Source of the DNA: a virus
Taxonomy: Duplodnaviria > Caudoviricetes
Length of the DNA: 64,000 nucleotides
Direction: 5' to 3' (one strand)
IMG/VR virus record: IMGVR_UViG_3300043384_000010
Span: 1 to 64,000 of that record
Made by a program: the position numbers and the translations under genes. Positions within the stretch are counted from its first letter, which is position 1. Each line of letters begins with the position of its first letter. Shown piece after piece: positions 6,192 to 26,392 of this stretch. Under the pieces are notes generated by a model, which was not told the origin of the DNA, did not search any database, and saw only the letters and a program-made list of their open reading frames with translations.

Positions 6192-7223
6192 TCAGGGTTG
6201 TTGGCGGGGGTCCCACCGTTCGGCGTTGGCTTGTGCTTGCTCCCTGGCTTTCGGTGTGAGCGCCACCCGCTGACGTCGCCGCCACGCCCGCGCGGTGCGG
6301 GACAGGTAACGCCGCTGCGCGCGGGCGACCCGATCCACAGACGGCGACGGACGCGACCTACGCCCACCACCCGGGACCACGGCGGTCAACCGGTGCTGAC
6401 ACCACGGATGCCACACCCCAGCCGCACGCGACTCAGGCAGAGTCCCAGCACACCGGACCTCCACCATCCGCCCAGCCGGGGAAGCGACCCAGTAGATGCC
6501 GGCAGGCGACCCGTCCAGGGAGACGGTCTTGCCCTCCCAGTCGCGGCACGCCTTGTGCAAGGTGTGGTTGACGCTGATCCGCGCGAACCTGACCCCAGCC
6601 GCCCGGCACACGTCCAGGTAGGCGTTGAGGGCGACCTCCGCGTACTGCGCCCGGACCGCCGTCTCCACGTAATGCTCCAGGCTCCAGTTCCGCCCGGCAG
6701 CGTCCGTGTACCCCGTGATGCCCCGGTCGGCGAGGTCATCCAAGACGCGCTGAATGTCGCGGGTCGGGTCACCCGTCGCTGTCTGGCCAGCCCGAACCCC
6801 CGCCCGGAACGCGTCCTCCATCACCGCTTGGATCCGCTGGTGGGAGGACGTCAGGACGGCCAGGACGGCGCGGACCGTGACCGGTGAGACGTCAGGGAGG
6901 GGTCCGTCCCAGCGGGCGTCAGCGGCAGCCTCACGGGCTGCGCGCTCCACGATGTCGGTCAGGTCCCGCTCCACCATCGGACCCAACCGGACCGTCAACT
7001 CCGTGAGTGCCCGCTGCACCTCGGTGCGGAACCGGGGAAGACGGCCGAGGACGCGGGTCGCCCACGACGGGATCGGAACCCCCGGGGTAGGAGCAAGGTG
7101 GGCGGCCAACACCGCCAGCAGGCCAGCGATCAGGGCCGCGTAGACGGCGGGCACACTGTCCGGCTGCGGCTCCCCGTCACCGGTCGTGCTGTACGGGTCG
7201 GTGACCGCAGGAGACAGCGACAT
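6192..7223 (-). CDS. Minor capsid protein (Phage_min_cap2 / MuF-like)
   Basis: GRNWSLEHYVETAVR...CRDWEGK...HPWCQHRL. Confidence 0.8.
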   Translation of the reverse strand: MSLSPAVTDPYSTTGDGEPQPDSVPAVYAALIAGLLAVLAAHLAPTPGVPIPSWATRVLGRLPRFRTEVQRALTELTVRLGPMVERDLTDIVERAAREAAADARWDGPLPDVSPVTVRAVLAVLTSSHQRIQAVMEDAFRAGVRAGQTATGDPTRDIQRVLDDLADRGITGYTDAAGRNWSLEHYVETAVRAQYAEVALNAYLDVCRAAGVRFARISVNHTLHKACRDWEGKTVSLDGSPAGIYWVASPAGRMVEVRCAGTLPESRAAGVWHPWCQHRLTAVVPGGGRRSRPSPSVDRVARAQRRYLSRTARAWRRRQRVALTPKAREQAQANAERWDPRQQP

Positions 7224-7444
7224 CGGACTAGCCAGTGATCCGGACGCCGAGAGGCTCCCGGATGTGACCCCGGCCGTACGTCTCGTTAGCCCACGCGACA
7301 GGTTGGAACTGGAAGTCAATCGGGAGCCCAGTGAACGCCTGCCCCCACGCCGAGACGGCCATGCAGAGGGCCGCGAGGACGAGGCTTCCCCACGCGTTCA
7401 GGATGAGGTGCTGCGGCGACCCGACGCCTTCACTACTCACGACA

Positions 7445-8689
7445 TCACGCCCGGTAGTGGTCGATGAGCTGCTGCTTGGTCATTCCGTCCACGGCGTCCC
7501 CGATGCCCGCCGTACGCCCGTAGGACCGCCACTCCTCCACCGACGCACGAACCGGCGGACGGGCCGTCAGATCCGAGTCATCCGCTGGGGCAGCCTCGAC
7601 GGGAGGGTCCGGGAGGGAGAACATCTCCACGACATCAGGCAGGTTCACCGTCTCCACGGGACGCGCACGGTCACGCATGATGCGCCCATCAGCCTCGGAG
7701 GCCGTCTCACCCTGAGGGTTGCTGACGGTCACAGTCCCGGACATGGGCGACCCGTCCGCGGACACGTAGCCAGCCACTGCCGCCGGGACAGTAACGGACC
7801 CGGTCTCGGTCTCGGCCTCGGTGAGGGCACGCCGGAAGTCGTCGTCCCGCAACGGATGCGGGGCAGGCTGCTCGATCAACACCCAGTTCCCGAGACGATC
7901 CAGCCTGTCGTTCCGCGACGGGAACTCGTGGGTAGACCCGTCGTTCCGGTTTCTGTACTTCCACATCGTGGTCTCCCTGGTCTCGACCTCGCGTCCAGCG
8001 AGGAACTCACGCATCCGGCCCTCACCCGCAGCCCGCGCGTACTCCGCCAGAAGACGCCGGCCCGCCACCGTGCCCGTCCCCCGCGGCGGCGCACACTCCC
8101 CGGACGCCATCTCCGGGGTCAGCCCGACCCGGTCCATCGGCGGATGCCACAGATGGAACAACGGTTCCGTGGACCGCCACGGCGGCCCGTACAGGGCGGT
8201 GAGGGCCACACCCCACGCCGCGTCCTCCTGACCCCAACCCACGAACCGCGGATCCAGGGGGCACGCCTCGTACACGTCCATGCGCAGCACGACACAGCCG
8301 CCGCCGACCATCCCGACATACGGGCGCTGCTCCACCCGCTGCTCAATCAGCGGGCCACCGAACACTTCCCGCCCAAGCATCACGTCGGTAGCACCCTTGG
8401 TGAGCCGGTGCACCAGCGTGTGAGGGACAGCCCACGCCGCACCCGACTCGACAGCCTCAACAGCCGCCACCACACCCGGACACCACACATCCGCGTCAGC
8501 TAAGACCAGGACATCCCCGGTCGCCCGGGACAGTGCATCCTCGACCGCGGCAGCCTTCACCCACGGGCCATCCGGACAGCCCCCCGCGATGACCTCCCAC
8601 CCGAGTCCGGCCCAACGCTCAGACAAGTGCGCCCACGCCCGGTCCCGCTCCGCACCATCAGGCCGGAACGGAACCAGGACAGTGGGCAT
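7445..8689 (-). CDS. GT-A fold glycosyltransferase fused in frame to a small head-module protein
   Basis: LADAD (DxD) and FVGWGQED; internal AGGGAG-N6-ATG at 7966 opens MWKYRNRND...MTKQQLIDHY. Confidence 0.8.
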   Translation of the reverse strand: MPTVLVPFRPDGAERDRAWAHLSERWAGLGWEVIAGGCPDGPWVKAAAVEDALSRATGDVLVLADADVWCPGVVAAVEAVESGAAWAVPHTLVHRLTKGATDVMLGREVFGGPLIEQRVEQRPYVGMVGGGCVVLRMDVYEACPLDPRFVGWGQEDAAWGVALTALYGPPWRSTEPLFHLWHPPMDRVGLTPEMASGECAPPRGTGTVAGRRLLAEYARAAGEGRMREFLAGREVETRETTMWKYRNRNDGSTHEFPSRNDRLDRLGNWVLIEQPAPHPLRDDDFRRALTEAETETGSVTVPAAVAGYVSADGSPMSGTVTVSNPQGETASEADGRIMRDRARPVETVNLPDVVEMFSLPDPPVEAAPADDSDLTARPPVRASVEEWRSYGRTAGIGDAVDGMTKQQLIDHYRA

Positions 8690-8694
8690 CAGGC

Positions 8695-9606
8695 TCAGCT
8701 GGCGTTCTGCCAGATCAGGCAGGCGCGCTCTGCCGCGAGCGTCTTCACACCGAACAGCAGGTCGATCGACAGGACATCCTTCTTGTGCGTGTAGTCGTAC
8801 GCCCACACACAACGCACCCCCACCCCGTCAGCCTCCTCATACCACGCCTTCGCGGACCCCTCCGGCAGCATCAGTGGGCGCGTCACGAACGCGACAGCGG
8901 TCCGGTGGAACGCGACACCGATCTCACTGTCACCACCCGTGACATGGGTCGTCTTGTACGGCTCGAACCCGAACAGCCGGTTCCCCAGGTACGCCTGAGT
9001 GCGGCCGACGATGTCACCGCGATCACTGGCCTTGGTGAGCAGGTCGTCACCCTGCCACTTCGCCGACGTGGTCGGGCCGACGACGACGAACCGCTCGTCC
9101 TCCGGGACGACCCGCGTGTCCAAGACACGCCCGGCGTCGATCATGACGCGGGGGTTGTCCCAATCCCACGCGTTCGTGCCGGAGACGCCAGTCGTGACAC
9201 TGCCCTTCGTGCCGACCTCCTGGACGATGTCGTTGCGGAACGCGAGGATCGCCTGGTCGACAGCCTTCGCGTGCGCCTGCATCACCGGGGTGATGACCTG
9301 CACCTGTAGATCCTTGATGTCGAGGGCGCGTTCCTTCGCACCGAACGAAATCGAGATGTCCTTGTGGGTGTTCAGGACGACAGGGATCGACGACTCGGTG
9401 ACGTTCTGGAGTTCGATCCCATCCGCCTCGACGAAGTCCTTCGCCTCGAACGTCGCCGGCTTGCGGATGGTGACAGTGTCACCGGCGCCCTGCACGAACT
9501 CCCGCTCGTAGTCGCGGTGGACCAGCCTGAGCATCGTGGACTGCTGGATCAGGTTCGCCAACGCGATCTTCGCCACGATCGACGGCTTGATGAATGTGTT
9601 CGCCAT
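8695..9606 (-). CDS. Major capsid protein (P22 coat-like)
   Basis: MANTFIKPSIVAK...RDYEREF...GDTVTIRKP...DLLFGVKTL; follows the scaffold. Confidence 0.9.
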   Translation of the reverse strand: MANTFIKPSIVAKIALANLIQQSTMLRLVHRDYEREFVQGAGDTVTIRKPATFEAKDFVEADGIELQNVTESSIPVVLNTHKDISISFGAKERALDIKDLQVQVITPVMQAHAKAVDQAILAFRNDIVQEVGTKGSVTTGVSGTNAWDWDNPRVMIDAGRVLDTRVVPEDERFVVVGPTTSAKWQGDDLLTKASDRGDIVGRTQAYLGNRLFGFEPYKTTHVTGGDSEIGVAFHRTAVAFVTRPLMLPEGSAKAWYEEADGVGVRCVWAYDYTHKKDVLSIDLLFGVKTLAAERACLIWQNAS

Positions 9607-16900: not shown

Positions 16901-18118
16901 CTAAAGGACGGAGATTCCTACTGCAGCGGGGCTGCTTCGGTGGGTTCCTGCTTCGTCGCGCTGCGCCGGGACGAGTCCCGGTCTTACCTGCGCTCCACAG
17001 GCTCTGTCCGCCCGTCCGGCGGTGAGAATGTTCCGGGCCGCGTTCAGGTCCCGGTCGTGTGTGGTGTTGCAGTGCGGGCACGTCCACGTGCGGACCGAGA
17101 GGGGCTTGGGTCCGTCCTTGATCCCGCAGGTGGAGCACACCTGGCTGGTGGGCTCGAACCGTCCGATCCTGGCGAACGTCCGCCCCCACCGGGCCGCCTT
17201 GTACTCCAGCATGCCCACGAACGTGGACCAGCCCGCATCGTGAACCGACTTCGCGAGCTTCGTCCGGGCGAGACCGGCCACGCACAGGTCCTCGACGTAT
17301 ACCGCTTGGGTTTCGCGGATGACCGTCGTGGAAGCCTTGTGGAGCCAGTCCCGCCGGGTGTCCGCCACCCGAGCGTGCAGCCTTGCGACCTTCCGGACCT
17401 GCTTGGCCCGGTTCTTGCTGCTTTTCTGCTTCCGGCTCAGGGACTGCTGTGCCCGCTTCAACCGGCGTTCGGCCTTCCGCAGAAACCTCGGGTTGTCCAC
17501 CACCCTGCCCGACGAAAGGACCGCGAACGACGCCAACCCCAGGTCGATCCCCACCTCGGCATCCACCGGTGGGAGTGGCGCATCCTGCGTCTCGACCACG
17601 AATGAGGCGTGGTACCTGCCCGACGCATCGAGGATCACCGTCACCGACGACGGGTCCGACGGGAGGTCCCTGGACCACCGGACCGGGACGTCCCCGATCT
17701 TCGGGAGGCGCAGCTTCCCGCCCTCCGTGACCTTGAAGTTTGCGTTGCGGGTGAACCGGATCGCCTGCCGGTGGTCCTTCCGGGACCGGAACCTGGGCGG
17801 TGCGACTTTCCGGCCCTTCCGCTTCCCGGACATGGAGTTGAAGAAGTTCCGGTACGCGCCGTTCAGGTCGGCGACCGCCTGTTGCAGGACGACCGCCGAC
17901 ACCTCTGCGAGCCACTCCCGTTCCGGGGTCCGCTTCGCGTTTGTCGTGACCCGCTTCAACAGGTCCCCGTCCGAGATGTACGGCAGACCCTCGGCGTGCG
18001 CTTCGCGCCGTGCGGCGAGCCCGTCGTTGAACACCACCCGTGCGCACCCGAACGCCCTCGCCAGCGCCTGACGCTGACCTGGGCTCGGGTAGAGCCGGAA
18101 GTTGTACCGAAGCTGCAC
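16901..18118 (-). CDS. tnpB: RNA-guided endonuclease TnpB, catalytic residues intact
   Basis: GIDLG, VEDL, Zn ribbon, DRDLNAARN. Confidence 0.97.
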   Translation of the reverse strand: MQLRYNFRLYPSPGQRQALARAFGCARVVFNDGLAARREAHAEGLPYISDGDLLKRVTTNAKRTPEREWLAEVSAVVLQQAVADLNGAYRNFFNSMSGKRKGRKVAPPRFRSRKDHRQAIRFTRNANFKVTEGGKLRLPKIGDVPVRWSRDLPSDPSSVTVILDASGRYHASFVVETQDAPLPPVDAEVGIDLGLASFAVLSSGRVVDNPRFLRKAERRLKRAQQSLSRKQKSSKNRAKQVRKVARLHARVADTRRDWLHKASTTVIRETQAVYVEDLCVAGLARTKLAKSVHDAGWSTFVGMLEYKAARWGRTFARIGRFEPTSQVCSTCGIKDGPKPLSVRTWTCPHCNTTHDRDLNAARNILTAGRADRACGAQVRPGLVPAQRDEAGTHRSSPAAVGISVL

Positions 18119-20438: not shown

Positions 20439-21482
20439 TCACGGTTTCAGCTCCATCACTCGGTCGAGGAACGTCCGGTAGACGGGTAGGAGTGCGTCCC
20501 ACGTCCACCTCGTGGCGATGTCCCGGGCGTCCTTGGCCCACTCCTGCACCAGCCCGGGATCGGCGTGGAGACGACGGACGAGGGCCTCTAGGGCGCCCAT
20601 GTCGGTCTGATACAGGTCGATCCTGGTCTTGGCCATGAAGGACCCGGACACAGCCGCTGGGATGAGCCACTCACCTGGGAGCCATGTCGTGTTGGGGTCG
20701 ATCCGGGGCATGATGACGGGCATGCCGGCGGTGACCGCCTCCCTCGCTGGCATGCAAAGCCCACCGAACCTTCGGGGTAGGACCATCACATCCCCCACCC
20801 TGTACAGGTCGGCAGGCTCCGGCATATCCGCCACGAGAGTGACGTCCGATCCGCGGAGCGCCCGGGTGATGTCCTCAGTGGGCGACTGGCAGGTGACGAC
20901 CCATTCGGCGTCCAGGTCGCGGCACCGGCCGGCGAGGTAGATGAAGTCGAGGCTGCCGTTCCGGTCGTAGGCGGCCGGGCGCCCGCCGATGTGCAGGAAC
21001 GTCCGCGCCTCGGTCACCTGCCGTTGCAGGATCCCGGTCGGGTCCACGGGGACCGGCAACTCCCAGACGATCGGGAATGGCCCCTGGCCCATCCGGTGCA
21101 CGTTCCACGGGGATGGGGCCGCGAACACTGTCGGCCGACTCAGCCACGGGTCCCTGAAGTAGTCGAGGAACTCGAAATTGTGCTGAAGGATCGAGCGGAT
21201 CCCCCGCTTGCGTGCCTGGTCGAACAGGGCGTAATTCGCTGGCGTCTCACACGCGAGGACCACGTCCAGGCCGTCCAAGAACGCGGCGATGTCCTGCATC
21301 GTCGGGGCGTCACGGACGACCTGCGCGCCCGGGAACCACTCCGGGTGCAGGGGGAGGCGCTTCCGGTGAGACAGGTCGATCAGGAGCGTTTTCGCCGGGC
21401 GCAGGTGGTCGTGTATCGCCTTGGTCTGGTATCCGAGACCGGTTGCGGTGCCGTAGGCGACGAGGCCGAGACGGGGGCTCAC
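20439..21482 (-). CDS. GT-B (GT4-like) glycosyltransferase
   Basis: DLYRVGDVMVLPRRFGGLCMPAREAVTAGMPVI. Confidence 0.85.
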   Translation of the reverse strand: MSPRLGLVAYGTATGLGYQTKAIHDHLRPAKTLLIDLSHRKRLPLHPEWFPGAQVVRDAPTMQDIAAFLDGLDVVLACETPANYALFDQARKRGIRSILQHNFEFLDYFRDPWLSRPTVFAAPSPWNVHRMGQGPFPIVWELPVPVDPTGILQRQVTEARTFLHIGGRPAAYDRNGSLDFIYLAGRCRDLDAEWVVTCQSPTEDITRALRGSDVTLVADMPEPADLYRVGDVMVLPRRFGGLCMPAREAVTAGMPVIMPRIDPNTTWLPGEWLIPAAVSGSFMAKTRIDLYQTDMGALEALVRRLHADPGLVQEWAKDARDIATRWTWDALLPVYRTFLDRVMELKP

Positions 21483-21678
21483 CTGGCGCCACCCTGGCGG
21501 ACCAGCCCCGAATCTGACGCGAGGTCAAGGCGCGGCCTGCATATCGGGTGGCCGCCGCACTCGGGTGGGCAGTTGCGTGAGCAGGCGGACTCGGTCCCCC
21601 ACGTCGTGCACACCGCCAGGTAATCCGCAGAGACAGGTTCGTTCCCGGCCCGGGTGATGCACGGATGCGGTTCACCGC

Positions 21679-23346
21679 TCACCGGTCTACCCACTTGCTG
21701 TCGTCTCCGCGCCCGTCGAGGTGCCAGGAGTACTTGATCCCGTGCTCCCCGTTGGGCTCCGTCAGGATCCACAGGTGATGGGCGCCCGGATCCGACTGCG
21801 CGACCGAATGCATCCGGTCCTCAAGCATCCACTTCTCGTCAGAGCCGAAGTGGTCGCGGAGAATGTCCCGGTAGTAGGCGGTCCGGGCGACGTGAGGTCG
21901 CTGCGACCACTGCCGGGTCGGCCTCATCCGGGCTCCCGCGACGTCCTCGTCTGGGCCGTCCATCAGGTATTCGTGGACGGGCAGGACACTGGCCTCATGG
22001 TGGAGACGGACAACGTCGGCCCGGTCCCCGCGGACGGCATGGGTGATGGCGGCCCACGAGATGTCGCCGAGGATCGGGCAGTCATGCTCGGCGAACATGA
22101 TGGTGGGGGTGGTGACCATGTTGAGGGCGTGGCGGGTCATCCCCGACTGGTGCCGGTGTTCCGGGTGGATGACGGGGAGGACGTTGGACCACTTCTCCCG
22201 GCAGAGCCGTACCAGCTCGTACAGGTACTCCTCGTACCGCTGCCGGTAGTGCTCCTGGGCGGGCCGTACCCCGTCGCACATGACCAGGATCTCCGCCCGC
22301 GGCAACTGAGCCCGGACCGAGTCGATCGTCTCCTCGATCACCGCAGTGGACGGGTGGGAGGGGATCGGGGAGGTTGGCATCAGGACGGTGATCTGGTCGT
22401 CCACGGACGGAGCAGGGGTGGGCGCACCGAGGTCCCGCAGATCCGCCACCAGGCGACGGGCCATGTCCCGCTGGTAGCGCATCCACCATGCTGCGGCGCG
22501 GGACGCCGGGGCTGGCCAGTCCGCGGTGATGTGGTCGACGTACGCCGCGAGCTCATCCCATCCGGAGACGACGGGGAACGCGGCGTCACTGCCGGGGAAC
22601 GTGGCGTCGCTTCCGATGACCTCCACCCAGTAAGCGACCCCGAGCCCCCCGCCTGGGGTGCGACCGTCGAGGACCGGGACGGCCCCCAACTCCATCGCCT
22701 CCCACGCCCGGAAGGAGTCGACACAGACCGGACCGGACGGGGCAGGGCACACCCGCGCCGATGCCATCAACGCCATGTACTCGGCGGGTTCGACTCCCTG
22801 CGTGAAGCCAGCAGTCCGGGTCAGGTGCCCTGGCCTGCCAGTGTCGAGGATCGCCTGGACGGCGTCCGCGCACTCGTGTCGGCGTGCGTGGGTGTCCTGG
22901 GCGAGGAGGACGACGTCCCTGGTCCGCTCACCCCACGGGGTGTCGTAGGCGAGGGTCGCGGGACCGTTGGCGAGGTACCGGGTGCCGGGCGGGTAGGTGC
23001 GGGTGGCGTCGGGGGTCTGCACCCATAGGCGCATGTTCGGGTGCTCGACGTGCCCGTACGGGTAGGAGTGCTCCTCGTCGCCGTTGAGGATGAGGAGCAG
23101 CCACGGGAGGGACGCGGTCGCCTCGTTGATGCGGCGCAGGTCATCCAAGGACGTGTGGTGCCTCGCGGGGAGCACCACCACCGCGCCCTCGGCGTCGGGG
23201 ACATCCGCGAGGGCGTCGTGGTGGACGAAGTCCGGCCAGCAGGGGGCGCGGTACCGACCGGCAAGCAGCCGCTCAATGATCGCCTGATCCCACACTCCCC
23301 GGTTGCACCCCTCCATGAGGGGCTCCCACACGACATGCACGCTCAC
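21679..23346 (-). CDS. Two-domain glycosyltransferase (exostosin/GT47-like + GT2-like)
   Basis: YMALMASARVCPAPSG...SFRAWEAMELGAVPV; ITVLMPTSP...MFAEHD. Confidence 0.75.
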   Translation of the reverse strand: MSVHVVWEPLMEGCNRGVWDQAIIERLLAGRYRAPCWPDFVHHDALADVPDAEGAVVVLPARHHTSLDDLRRINEATASLPWLLLILNGDEEHSYPYGHVEHPNMRLWVQTPDATRTYPPGTRYLANGPATLAYDTPWGERTRDVVLLAQDTHARRHECADAVQAILDTGRPGHLTRTAGFTQGVEPAEYMALMASARVCPAPSGPVCVDSFRAWEAMELGAVPVLDGRTPGGGLGVAYWVEVIGSDATFPGSDAAFPVVSGWDELAAYVDHITADWPAPASRAAAWWMRYQRDMARRLVADLRDLGAPTPAPSVDDQITVLMPTSPIPSHPSTAVIEETIDSVRAQLPRAEILVMCDGVRPAQEHYRQRYEEYLYELVRLCREKWSNVLPVIHPEHRHQSGMTRHALNMVTTPTIMFAEHDCPILGDISWAAITHAVRGDRADVVRLHHEASVLPVHEYLMDGPDEDVAGARMRPTRQWSQRPHVARTAYYRDILRDHFGSDEKWMLEDRMHSVAQSDPGAHHLWILTEPNGEHGIKYSWHLDGRGDDSKWVDR

Positions 23347-23589
23347 GCCGCGGCCTCCTTGGTTGCGGCAGGGTTGAAGGGATCCTCGGGGGTCATTCGG
23401 GCACCACCCAAGTAAGCCGCTCCCGGACTCTGGCCGCCTTCAGAAACGCATCCTCCGCATCCCAGGGGCCACACACAGTCGCGACTAGGCCACGCCGCCC
23501 GCGCCATCTGACGCGCCACAGACGGTGGCCGCGGATGCACCTACCCCAGGATGTGACACCGAAGCCCTCCTGGTCATCGAAGACCGCAG

Positions 23590-24360
23590 TCACGCGACGC
23601 CTCCGGGCGGGTCGAAATACCAGTGTTCCTCATGGTCTGTCGCCAAGTGGAACCCCGCATACCCCAGGTCGCCCATGAGGGCGTGCACGTCGGCTGGGGT
23701 GGCCCCGTAGTCGCGGGCCATCAGGTCCGGGTGGATCGACACCCACACATTGGGCCGGTCCTCCTCCAGGGTCCGGGCCGCTCCCTGGAGGACGAGGAGT
23801 TCCGCGCCTTCGACGTCGATGGTGATCGCGTCGGGGGCGCCAGCGAATGCGGCGAGGGCGTCGAGGGTGGTGGCTGGGACGTCGGCGGGGTTGTCGTGGA
23901 GGTACGTGTATGCCGTCTTCCCGATCATGGGGCCGTCGGTTGCGTCCGGCCATCCGTTCGAGGTGAGATGCCTGGCCGGGATGCGACCCGTCGCGGCACC
24001 GACGAGGCCGTGGAAGGTGGTGGACGGGAGCGCTAAGCCGTTCCGTTCCCACGTGGCCTTGATGCTCGGCCACATGGGAGTGCTCGGCTCGATGAGGACC
24101 ATGCTCTCGGCGCCGACCATGGATGCGTAGACGACGCTGAGCCACGCGAACTCGGTACCCACGTCGTACAGGCAGTCCCCGGGTTTCAGGACGGACGCCA
24201 TGTGCTCGGTCCTGGGGCGCTCCCAGTAGTCCCAGACATCCCAGTCTGCGAGGGGCCGTGGCAGTTGCAGGTGATACCGCCACTCGTGCGATTCGAACGG
24301 GCCAGCATCCGACGTCTTGATGTAGCCGACGTTCTTCCACTCCGTACTCAAGGCGCGCAC
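23590..24360 (-). CDS. FkbM-family SAM methyltransferase
   Basis: CLYDVGTEF, LIEPS, AITIDVEGAELLVLQGA. Confidence 0.85.
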   Translation of the reverse strand: MRALSTEWKNVGYIKTSDAGPFESHEWRYHLQLPRPLADWDVWDYWERPRTEHMASVLKPGDCLYDVGTEFAWLSVVYASMVGAESMVLIEPSTPMWPSIKATWERNGLALPSTTFHGLVGAATGRIPARHLTSNGWPDATDGPMIGKTAYTYLHDNPADVPATTLDALAAFAGAPDAITIDVEGAELLVLQGAARTLEEDRPNVWVSIHPDLMARDYGATPADVHALMGDLGYAGFHLATDHEEHWYFDPPGGVA

Positions 24361-25040
24361 CTTCCGCCGTTGGCTGCTGTCGGCCAGTACCAGATCGGGT
24401 TGTCCGGGTTGTTGAACGGCCTGCCATAGGCGGGCACGTCGCTCGCGCCAGGGTGGCGGCCCCACTTCCGGCGGAAGTAGTCGATCAGGTTGTTCGTCTC
24501 GGTCCGCACCCCGGCCAGGTGGATGCCGTGGGCCATCCCCGCATCCCGAACATCACACGGCACCTTCACCCAGAAGGGACGCCCATCCGCGGGGATCGAC
24601 ATGGCCCGTTGGATCCGCAACGACATGTCCAGGTCGCAGAACCCGTACGGGGTGAAGTTCTCATCCCACCTGCCCGCGGCGTCGATGGTGCGCCTGTGGA
24701 AGGCGATCAGATGCCACCCGTACACTCCCTGCCCACGCGAATCCGGGGTCCAGCATGGGCCCTCCAAGACGTCATGACCCGGGTTCGCGTCGAGATGTGC
24801 GATGAAGTCAAGGCCTCCCGGGGCGCCGAACCGGATCGCCGCGGACATGACAACCAGCCAATCCGCGCCCGTCTCCCGCATCCGGTCGACACCCAGGTTG
24901 TGCGCAGCCATGATCCCGATGTTGTGCTCGGTGTTGTCCACCCACAGCACGTTCGGCAAGAACGCGGGGTGCATCGTCGCCCGGCACTCCTCCATCCACG
25001 GGCGGTGAATGAACGGGACGACACCTACCCACGACGTCAC
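24348..25040 (-). CDS. GT2-like glycosyltransferase
   Basis: NIGIMAAHNLG, GRWDENFTPYGFCDLD. Confidence 0.7.
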   Translation of the reverse strand: MTSWVGVVPFIHRPWMEECRATMHPAFLPNVLWVDNTEHNIGIMAAHNLGVDRMRETGADWLVVMSAAIRFGAPGGLDFIAHLDANPGHDVLEGPCWTPDSRGQGVYGWHLIAFHRRTIDAAGRWDENFTPYGFCDLDMSLRIQRAMSIPADGRPFWVKVPCDVRDAGMAHGIHLAGVRTETNNLIDYFRRKWGRHPGASDVPAYGRPFNNPDNPIWYWPTAANGGRCAP

Positions 25041-25993
25041 AGGGCGCCCTCCACGCGGAGCAGGTCGAGCATCGCAGTCAACCGGTGCGTGTACGTGTGG
25101 TGCGCCTTGACATGCTCGTGGCCTGCGCGGCGGATGCGCTCCCGCTCGGCGTCGTGGGCCAAGTAGTGGTCGATCCGATCCCGCAGCCCGGACCAGTCGT
25201 TGAAGTCGTAGAAGGCCGTGTTGACACCCTCCACGTATCCGTCGTCAAGGCCGGCGATCCTCGGATGGACCATGAACCCGCCACGGCCCGGGGTCTCGAA
25301 TCGGCGATCCGAGCAATACCCCTCCCAGTCGAAGCCGACGACCAGGGAATCCCCCACCACGACCTTCGCCGATGCGTACAGGCGGTTCAACGCGTAACCG
25401 CGGATCGCCTGACCGCGGCCCCCGTAGTGGCTGAACCGTTGCCCGTAGGTGGAGGCCAGCCACCGGAGCAACTCACCCCGGTACCCCCATTCGCTGTGAT
25501 ACCCAGGCCCTGACCCAACGAAGATGACGTCCCGCTTCGGGCAGACGCCCTCCGCCACGTAGCACTCATCCGCGACGACGCCGGGGAGGATGTGCCGGTG
25601 GTTGATGCCGCGCCGCTGGAACTCTGCGGCTGAGCGGGGATTACCGTCCGGCGTGAACACGAAGTCGGTCCGCCAGAACGGGTCCGTGTCGATCCCGCCG
25701 TTCCGCTGCAACGGGACATACAGATCCAAGTGGTAGCTGACGGACGGGATGCCCCGGGACCGCAGCCAAGACAGGTGATCCTCGGTGACCGTGTGGCCCC
25801 ACGTCCTCGTGAAAAGGAACATGTCGGGGCGGTCCATCCGCTGCAACGCCTGCGTCAACCCGTCTGGGGAGAGGTCATCCTCCTGCAACCGGGTGACGGT
25901 GTGGCCCATCTGCGTCAGAGTCCGGGCGAGATGGGTTTCAGTGCTGTGCGACGGCTTGAAATTGCCACAGTAGGCGACACGGAGCCCGCTCAT
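25037..25993 (-). CDS. CgeB-like (Glyco_trans_1_2) glycosyltransferase
   Basis: LNRLYASAKVVVGD...SDRRFETPGRGGFM...GHEHVKAHHTYTHR. Confidence 0.85.
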   Translation of the reverse strand: MSGLRVAYCGNFKPSHSTETHLARTLTQMGHTVTRLQEDDLSPDGLTQALQRMDRPDMFLFTRTWGHTVTEDHLSWLRSRGIPSVSYHLDLYVPLQRNGGIDTDPFWRTDFVFTPDGNPRSAAEFQRRGINHRHILPGVVADECYVAEGVCPKRDVIFVGSGPGYHSEWGYRGELLRWLASTYGQRFSHYGGRGQAIRGYALNRLYASAKVVVGDSLVVGFDWEGYCSDRRFETPGRGGFMVHPRIAGLDDGYVEGVNTAFYDFNDWSGLRDRIDHYLAHDAERERIRRAGHEHVKAHHTYTHRLTAMLDLLRVEGAL

Positions 25994-26392
25994 GCGAAGC
26001 CTCCGACGAGGTGCGGGGAGAATCCGCGCGGCTGGTTGAAGCCCCGGCAAGTCCCGTGGTGGCGGCACCTCCCGCCGTTCGGGTGGTCGATCCGCTTGCA
26101 GTCGCACGTCTTGCACGTGGACGGTGGCGGAGGGGGGATCTGACCGGACGCCGGGCATCGGTTGTCCCGATCACCGCCTACCCACCCGTGGACACGGAAC
26201 TTGCCGGCCTTGGTGAGCGCGACGTGGGTACCGCACTCCGGGCAACGTGACTGCCCGTGGATGTGCACGCCCGTCATGGCGCGACCAAGGTAGTTATGGG
26301 GAGTGGCGGCACATGTCAAGACTAGCAGGTGGTGGCGGGCTATGCCGGGACCGTACCGGGCCGATCCGCTACGCCGAACGGCTCACCTCGGC

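Follow-up and report, generated by a model that had tools for sequence, protein, structure and literature searches.

The subject of this study is an open reading frame (ORF) of 414 codons at positions 7445-8689 of a 64,000-nt window, taken as positions 1 to 64,000 of the IMG/VR virus record IMGVR_UViG_3300043384_000010. The source is a viral contig of 90 kb and 68% G+C, from an actinomycete phage in a soil metagenome, with a CheckV completeness of 100%. The ORF is encoded on the minus strand, immediately behind the major capsid gene, and joins a glycosyltransferase (GT) in frame to a 173-amino-acid (aa) protein, referred to here as the module, which in many phages and prophages is the product of a separate gene following the capsid gene. 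An internal start codon and Shine-Dalgarno (SD) site precede the module, and both recur in fused relatives. The best reading, and one we consider reasonably probable, is glycosylation of the capsid C terminus by an enzyme that shares a head-associated module, an arrangement analogous to C/nu3 of phage lambda. An initial annotation, made from the letters alone, had described the capsid-adjacent ORF with its two parts in frame; that observation is confirmed, and the strand, which it did not give, is minus. Its interpretation stood in part: the fusion, the nature of the module, the link to virion glycosylation and the idea of two isoforms are supported, but the proposed priming role is not.

The 414-codon ORF and its glycosyltransferase domain

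The features of the ORF and of the capsid gene before it are as follows.

8695-9606, minus strand: major capsid protein, 303 aa, P22-coat/HK97-fold type (Pfam PF11651, 2.9e-30; phrog_283, 4.2e-50)
8690-8694, minus strand: 5 nt separating the capsid TGA from the fusion ATG, lacking an SD site (sequence)
7445-8689, minus strand: fusion ORF, glycosyltransferase then post-capsid module, 414 aa plus stop
7994-8689, minus strand: GT-A glycosyltransferase domain, aa 1-232, Che8 gp109 / phrog_1721 family
8489-8497, minus strand: DxD motif, D65-A-D67, both Asp invariant in alignment A1, conservation >=90% in A2
8222-8239, minus strand: GWGQED motif, aa 151-156, invariant or nearly so in A1 and A2
8144-8155, minus strand: HLWH motif, aa 179-182, candidate third metal ligand; H179, L180 and H182 invariant
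7972-7977, minus strand: internal SD-like GGGAGA, 5 nt upstream of the internal ATG (duplex energy -8.5 kcal/mol)
7964-7966, minus strand: internal in-frame ATG, Met242, predicted start of a 173-aa short isoform (sequence, conservation)
7871-7963, minus strand: mini-domain, aa 243-273, beta-beta-alpha-beta, YRNxNxG...RLxxLxNW (pLDDT 92-97)
7541-7870, minus strand: linker, aa 274-383, acidic, Pro-rich, length-variable and mostly disordered (pLDDT)
7448-7540, minus strand: three-helix HeH/SAP-like tail, aa 384-414, signature ...EW..Y.R...DGMTKxQLIxxY (pLDDT 87-97)

The frame runs from the ATG at 8689-8687 to the TGA at 7447-7445. The G+C content at third codon positions (GC3) is 0.70-0.88 in a single frame from start to stop, so that no hidden frameshift is indicated. 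The stretch is present in one contig of the source soil run at approximately 210x depth with 0 differences, and an independent soil run from 2019 yielded a diverged copy, with 188 substitutions over 2.2 kb, in which the only indels within the gene are +6 and -12 nt, both in-frame. A frameshift or an assembly error behind the fusion was ruled out by these three observations. There is no stop before 7966, the frame being open in the source and in the independent soil contig. The public gene call for the ORF (P0003, 371 aa) starts at residue 44, which would drop the conserved P7, R15, G41 and W43 and with them the conserved first strand of the GT domain; 8689 is therefore the better start.

The fusion is not peculiar to this phage. 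It is carried by more than 20 relatives, with full-length fused homologues at 88, 79, 73, 54 and 33% identity; IMG/VR contains 11 fused loci, and others are in Streptomyces prophages. Wherever a GT of the gp109 type directly precedes the module, the two are fused, and approximately 145 loci included none in which a GT with its own stop preceded a module gene standing by itself. The fused state requires about six changes on a tree of the GT domain, at least two of them forced. In a further locus (L114:2274-3653, also in L126 and L148), a different, sugar-transferase-like domain is fused to the same YRNxNxG...RLxxLxNW mini-domain. That domain matches phrog_7999 at E 6e-46 and lies about 1.5 kb after the capsid gene; its likeness to Stealth_CR2 and GlcNAc-1-phosphotransferases is weak (Pfam E 0.0025, below threshold; PDB E 0.26).

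The fold of the fusion protein was modelled with AF2 on 46 sequences. For residues 1-232 the pLDDT is mostly >90, and the model is of the GT-A (Rossmann-like) type. A Foldseek search of this domain against the PDB gave 109 matches at E<=1e-3, the best being B4GalT7, B4GalT1, chondroitin polymerase (K4CP) and LARGE1 at E ~1e-5, and in PHROGs it matches phrog_1721 ('galactosyl transferase') at 6e-9. The family assignment rests on the fold, the motifs and the phrog_1721 match. The DxD and HLWH residues were compared in alignment A1 (14 sequences), and HLWH may take part in metal binding. The GWGQED motif resembles the WGGED acid loop of the beta-4-galactosyltransferases. The beta-1,4-galactosyltransferases 7 and 1 (CAZy GT7) share both the DxD and the WG.ED-type motifs with the window protein, but identity to them is only 10-18% and whole-model TM-scores are low, so that donor, acceptor and stereochemistry are not inferable from the resemblance. 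The domain is predicted to be an active enzyme. The priming role that had been assigned to it is not supported, because the closest folds, B4GalT7 and B4GalT1, extend a sugar acceptor and not bare protein.

The post-capsid module and its internal start

From its N to its C terminus, the module comprises a beta-rich mini-domain, a linker that is acidic and disordered, and an HeH-like tail of three helices. The mini-domain is predicted with similar confidence whether the module is folded alone (pLDDT 95-96) or within the full model, and eight of its residues (Y4, N6, N8, R21, L22, L25, N27 and W28) are invariant in alignment A3. Its motif is also found in proteins P0126 and P0127, in gp9 of Galactica and in approximately 40 stand-alone genes. 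The pLDDT of the linker falls to 33-40 over aa 325-372; in relatives the linker ranges from 21 to 106 aa with a net charge of -24 to +1, mostly acidic. The tail matches phrog_2322 at 1.2e-5 and phrog_12035 at 4.7e-4. Structural alignment of the tail with VIA-align gave Z scores of 2-3.5 to Rho-N, LEM and SAP domains (3.1 to residues 1-40 of Rho, 1a62; 2.2-2.7 to LEM and SAP), weak scores being expected for a comparison over about 35 residues. The ESM-atlas neighbours of the small tail were Rho_N and HeH, at 0.82.

Database searches with the module itself were otherwise unproductive. Neither the module nor its last 60 aa matched a Pfam family at E<=10 (the HeH/SAP/Rho_N-type models PF12949, PF02037 and PF07498 were unmatched), Foldseek found nothing in the PDB at E<=1e-3 and only weak rows in BFVD, and hmmsearch of A3 against PDB sequences returned one chance match. 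An NCBIfam scan gave nothing useful, and tblastn of the module against cultured phages gave no match. A phmmer search of 1.8 billion representatives returned 8 matches only; a profile search with A3 returned 2, saturated by low-complexity words.

In 12 of 13 sequences the tail has a neutral to acidic character, its net charge being mostly between 0 and -5, and for that reason we regard it as a probable protein-binding rather than DNA-binding element. Binding of DNA by the acidic HeH tail was set aside on the same grounds.

Searching with a degenerate DNA pattern of the mini-domain brought up 65 loci, with Streptomyces, Nonomuraea, Actinomadura, Nocardiopsis and Streptosporangium as hosts, and in approximately 40 of these the module is a separate gene of 95-125 aa. 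The stand-alone genes have both the mini-domain and the tail motif. Their distance from the capsid gene is 27-44 nt in some and about 470-510 nt in others, and the capsid encoded there is 37-51% identical to that of the window. In the cultured Streptomyces phage Galactica the module is gp9, two genes past the capsid gene. The resemblance to small proteins that follow actinophage capsid genes, which the initial annotation had noticed, therefore holds: the same protein stands alone after the capsids of many phages and prophages. Three PHROG families of such proteins (12035, 2322 and 23232) are matched by the HeH-like tail, and phrog_12035 also covers the mini-domain in stand-alone relatives. In Gordonia phage Attis (phrog_2322) and Streptomyces phage Austintatious (phrog_23232), the gene immediately following that of the capsid encodes a protein in which only the tail is shared. 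The gene position of these families is also that of the module, only the fused GT domain intervening in the window. The members of all three families stand alone, however, whereas the window module is the C-terminal part of an enzyme. The label 'head-tail connector' attached to phrog_2322 derives from gene position, not from experiment.

Two further loci may be mentioned here. In Galactica, a small annotated methyltransferase, gp8 (L081:6545-6976), sits where the GT cassette is found elsewhere, with the capsid gene on one side and the stand-alone module on the other. A contig in a Burkholderiaceae metagenome-assembled genome bin (L089, SCTK01000024.1) contains an actinophage-type head module, with a capsid 44% identical to that of the window, together with the module, and this probably reflects either mis-binning or an unusual host.

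The translation signals of the two forms differ greatly in strength. Calculated energies of pairing with the anti-SD sequence are -1.9 kcal/mol for the long-form ATG and -8.5 kcal/mol for the internal ATG, the capsid and scaffold genes scoring -10.2 and -7.7, respectively, and the internal site ranks in the top 7% of the codon positions of the ORF. In all 12 of the fused ORFs first examined, an in-frame ATG is found 1-4 codons before the mini-domain motif, and in 11 of them a GGAGG-like element lies 5-9 nt before that ATG, within the top 2-9% of codon positions. The exception is L008, where the SD of the motif-proximal ATG is weak (-3.5) and a strong one (-9.1) serves an ATG eight codons further upstream. 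Further fused loci and prophage copies have ATG or GTG at this point with energies of -6 to -9.8, the range observed for stand-alone module genes. The peptide at the junction varies by lineage (TRETTM, LKGTPM, LEGSPM, EETPIM, LEDACM). The earlier suggestion of a long and a short isoform thus has good comparative support, in that a start codon and SD are present in every readable fused ORF within an unconserved peptide, and we infer that two isoforms exist. Because the long-form ATG lacks an SD and lies 5 nt past the capsid stop, its translation is likely to be coupled to that of the capsid gene. From the weak long-form start and the strong internal SD, the long form is expected to be scarce and the short form abundant.

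Proposed relation to virion glycosylation

The GT domain is related to gp109 of mycobacteriophage Che8. In an hmmsearch with the GT-domain profile, gp109 is matched at E 2e-20 (profile positions 2-219 on residues 2-229), and blastp gives 25% identity at E 1e-8. According to Freeman et al. 2023 (Cell Host Microbe 31:1216), as PMC11256854 and PMC11600133 cite that study, glycans are covalently bound to the Che8 capsid. In the window, five more genes of glycan metabolism form a cluster at a distance from the head genes:

20439-26158, minus strand: five-gene glycan cluster (Pfam matches; synteny in relatives)

The five genes encode a GT1-like protein, a 555-aa GT2-like protein, an FkbM methyltransferase, a 230-aa protein and a CgeB-like GT. 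The ORF of the 230-aa protein (24348-25040) matches no Pfam family, and among the families that Pfam assigned to the cassette genes none is of a membrane, lipid-carrier or flippase kind. L008 has homologues of the cluster, in unchanged order, between its capsid gene and the gene for the GT and module, and in L030, L041, L045 and L048 they lie directly upstream of the GT homologue. The slot between capsid gene and fusion contains a CgeB-like GT and an FkbM methyltransferase in L006, and several GT2-type and methyltransferase genes in L046. This synteny suggests that a cassette entered between capsid gene and module, that the fused enzyme is encoded by the final gene of the cassette, and that the cluster at 20439-26158 is its displaced remainder. 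An IS605-type TnpB gene (OrfB_IS605, 5.8e-29) is located at 16901-18118, between the cluster and the terminase region.

The organisation in Che8, where gp108-110 are associated with virion glycosylation, is similar in several respects. Both phages possess several GTs, one of them of the gp109 type, the window phage having a methyltransferase as well, and most of the cassette genes lie just upstream of the terminase genes in Che8 as in the window, and also in prophiGD91-2. The differences are that gp109 is a free enzyme of 232 aa at the far end of the genome, whereas the window GT directly follows the capsid gene; and that the window GT bears a 173-aa head-module extension with its own start signals, no such module being present after the Che8 capsid gene.

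The glycans of Che8 are reportedly attached at the C termini of the capsid and tail tube subunits. Both of these proteins end in serine (capsid ...KTGS, tail tube ...SDGS), as do those of prophiGD91-2 (...SSGS and ...EEAS, respectively). The window capsid ends in QNAS, its Ser codon AGC being at 8698-8700 and AGC-TGA spanning 8700-8695. Fifty distinct capsids were compared, absence of a GT being judged within the 8-14 kb fetched per locus. All 18 capsids with a homologue of the window GT nearby end in Ser, mostly as Gly-Ser, compared with 3 of 32 without one. Capsids with neither the Ser nor a GT end ...KGAD(V/A/Q)(A/P/V). Two of the three exceptions are L114 and L148, the loci with the phrog_7999 fusion, whose capsids end GESSESGSGS. 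The last capsid residue is A in Galactica, A in Attis and T in Austintatious, none of which is among the phage matches to the window GT. When the capsid tree was built with the final eight residues removed, the Ser ending and the presence of a GT each change six times, and independent contrasts on well-supported branches are concordant in 4 of 4 cases. The C-terminal Ser of the capsid is thus a candidate glycan acceptor, and a C-terminal Ser, usually preceded by Gly, may be a simple acceptor code. Taken together, the gp109 homology, the syntenic cassette and the Ser-ending capsids strongly suggest the link to virion glycosylation that had been proposed for this gene.

Several points weigh against the reading favoured here. 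The sign test on Ser co-variation has only four pairs and is not significant (p = 0.125), the absence of a GT refers to the limited distance given above, and the window capsid itself ends in Ala-Ser rather than Gly-Ser. The GT domain scores 18.9 bits with Pfam PF00535 (GT2), below the gathering threshold of 23.3. No tail-tube or major tail protein gene was identified in the contig, and no RNA run was listed as containing the stretch. The charge of the tail argues against DNA binding yet does not point to the capsid as its partner. Finally, given the six or so changes that the fused state requires on the GT tree, SD and ATG may look conserved in part because fusion occurred repeatedly and recently, and not because these signals were kept over a long time.

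Proposed mechanism, alternatives and neighbouring genes

Phage virion glycosylation was reportedly first shown in 2023, and it affects antibody recognition of therapeutic phages. To our knowledge, it is not known how virion-glycosylating enzymes find capsid subunits. The locus described here suggests one way. Its product would be a cytoplasmic GT-A glycosyltransferase of the Che8 gp109 family, the last enzyme of a virion-glycosylating cassette whose most likely target is the C-terminal serine of the capsid subunit. The cassette would have entered between the capsid gene and its usual neighbour, the small bipartite gene, and the last transferase of the cassette would then have lost its stop codon and come to read into the module gene. 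Two products are envisaged, a low-abundance long form comprising enzyme and module, dependent on ribosomes leaving the capsid gene, and a more abundant short form, the module alone, made from the conserved internal SD and ATG. The shared module would bring the enzyme to its own site of action, probably the assembling head. Binding of the module to assembling heads is suggested by its gene position and by analogy with lambda, and tethering of the enzyme through it is plausible.

The closest parallel is lambda C/nu3, in which, from the lambda annotation, an enzyme and a small head-assembly protein share a frame and a C terminus by means of an internal in-frame start, and protease C is targeted by sharing the sequence of the Nu3 scaffold. 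The proteins are unrelated, however, the enzyme here is a glycosyltransferase, and its two products are predicted only. The module may also be compared with lambda gpFI, another small protein encoded directly after the capsid gene and before a head-closure gene, which likewise has two small domains joined by a flexible acidic linker. As PMC4493119 describes the work of Popovic et al. 2012, gpFI mediates the contact of the DNA-terminase complex with procapsids. No homology of the module to gpFI was detectable (hhalign probability 7.2% over 12 aligned columns) and the order of the domains is seemingly reversed, so the resemblance is one of functional analogy only. It may be noted that lambda FI (L150:1503-1898) begins MTKDELIARL, similar to the last tail helix MTKxQLIxxY, a likeness not significant by hhalign; an HeH-like fold is possible for the helical N-terminal domain of gpFI too, with the domain order reversed.

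Three alternatives were considered, all less well supported than targeting of the enzyme by a shared module. The strongest, which we nevertheless think unlikely, is that the fusion is a tolerated accident of adjacency: the two halves would act independently, the SD and ATG would be kept to maintain the level of the module, and the long form would gain nothing. Stand-alone versions of both GT and module are indeed common, the fused state is scattered over the GT tree with its six changes, and the junction is short and unconserved. A neutral fusion is, however, difficult to square with the lack of any GT with its own stop ahead of a separate module gene at the ~145 loci, with the persistence of fusions down to 33-40% identity, and with the fusion of a second, unrelated enzyme-like domain to the same mini-domain.

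It is a good deal less probable that the transferase acts on a non-virion substrate (host envelope, spore polysaccharide, DNA or a small molecule) and that its adjacency to the capsid gene is incidental. Many phage glycosyltransferases modify DNA or O-antigen, PHROGs places phrog_1721 among the moron/auxiliary genes, and five of the six cassette genes are 12 kb from the head module in the window phage. In relatives, however, the cassette is inside the head module; the capsid C terminus co-varies with the enzyme; the GT is homologous to that of a phage with a glycosylated capsid; and the Pfam results for the cassette, in which the 230-aa ORF is unmatched, include none of the membrane, carrier or flippase families named above. 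Least probable of all is that the module is itself the glycan acceptor or carrier, the short isoform being a head-decoration protein with a glycosylated flexible stalk: mucin-like stalks are typical carriers of O-glycans and the predicted disordered linker of the window is 16% Ser plus Thr, but neither the length (21-106 aa) nor the Ser/Thr content (0.03-0.17) of the linker is conserved, most linkers being Pro- and acid-rich, it is the capsid C-terminal Ser and not the linker that co-varies with the enzyme, as in Che8, and modules without any GT nearby are common.

As leads, the locus provides a transferase joined to a head-module protein by way of conserved nested translation signals, together with a predicted acceptor, the capsid C-terminal Ser, which tracks the enzyme family across distant capsids including that of Che8. 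It also gives a first functional handle on a widespread small post-capsid family often mislabelled 'head-tail connector', and would carry the virion glycosylation system beyond mycobacteriophages, into temperate phages that infect Streptomyces and Streptosporangiales. A broader and decidedly tentative proposal is that the virion-glycosylating enzymes of actinomycete phages are generally targeted as N-terminal extensions of a gpFI-like chaperone with a nested start, that their acceptor is a C-terminal (Gly/Ala)-Ser, and that at least two enzyme types, the Che8 gp109-like GT-A and the Stealth-like domain, have arrived at this independently.

The head genes are on the minus strand in the order terminases, portal, scaffold-like protein, capsid, fusion, MuF and head-closure Hc1. 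Those other than the capsid and fusion genes for which positions were recorded are:

13848-13357, minus strand: small terminase, head module
13400-12093, minus strand: large terminase, head module
12080-10494, minus strand: SPP1-type portal, head module
10403-9648, minus strand: scaffold-like protein, 251 aa, head module
6192-7319, minus strand: MuF / minor capsid protein 2 gene, downstream of the fusion (PF06152, 4e-23)

Homology to MuF begins at about aa 33-56, and the true start of this gene probably lies below 7319. Between the fusion stop and the MuF gene there is a 70-codon ORF (7228-7440, minus strand) with a GC3 of 0.83 and a hydrophobic stretch; it overlaps the longest possible MuF start and matches no PHROG family. 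The MuF gene follows the capsid and GT genes in the window and in L001, L008 and L046, and most relatives have the order portal-MuF-scaffold-capsid.

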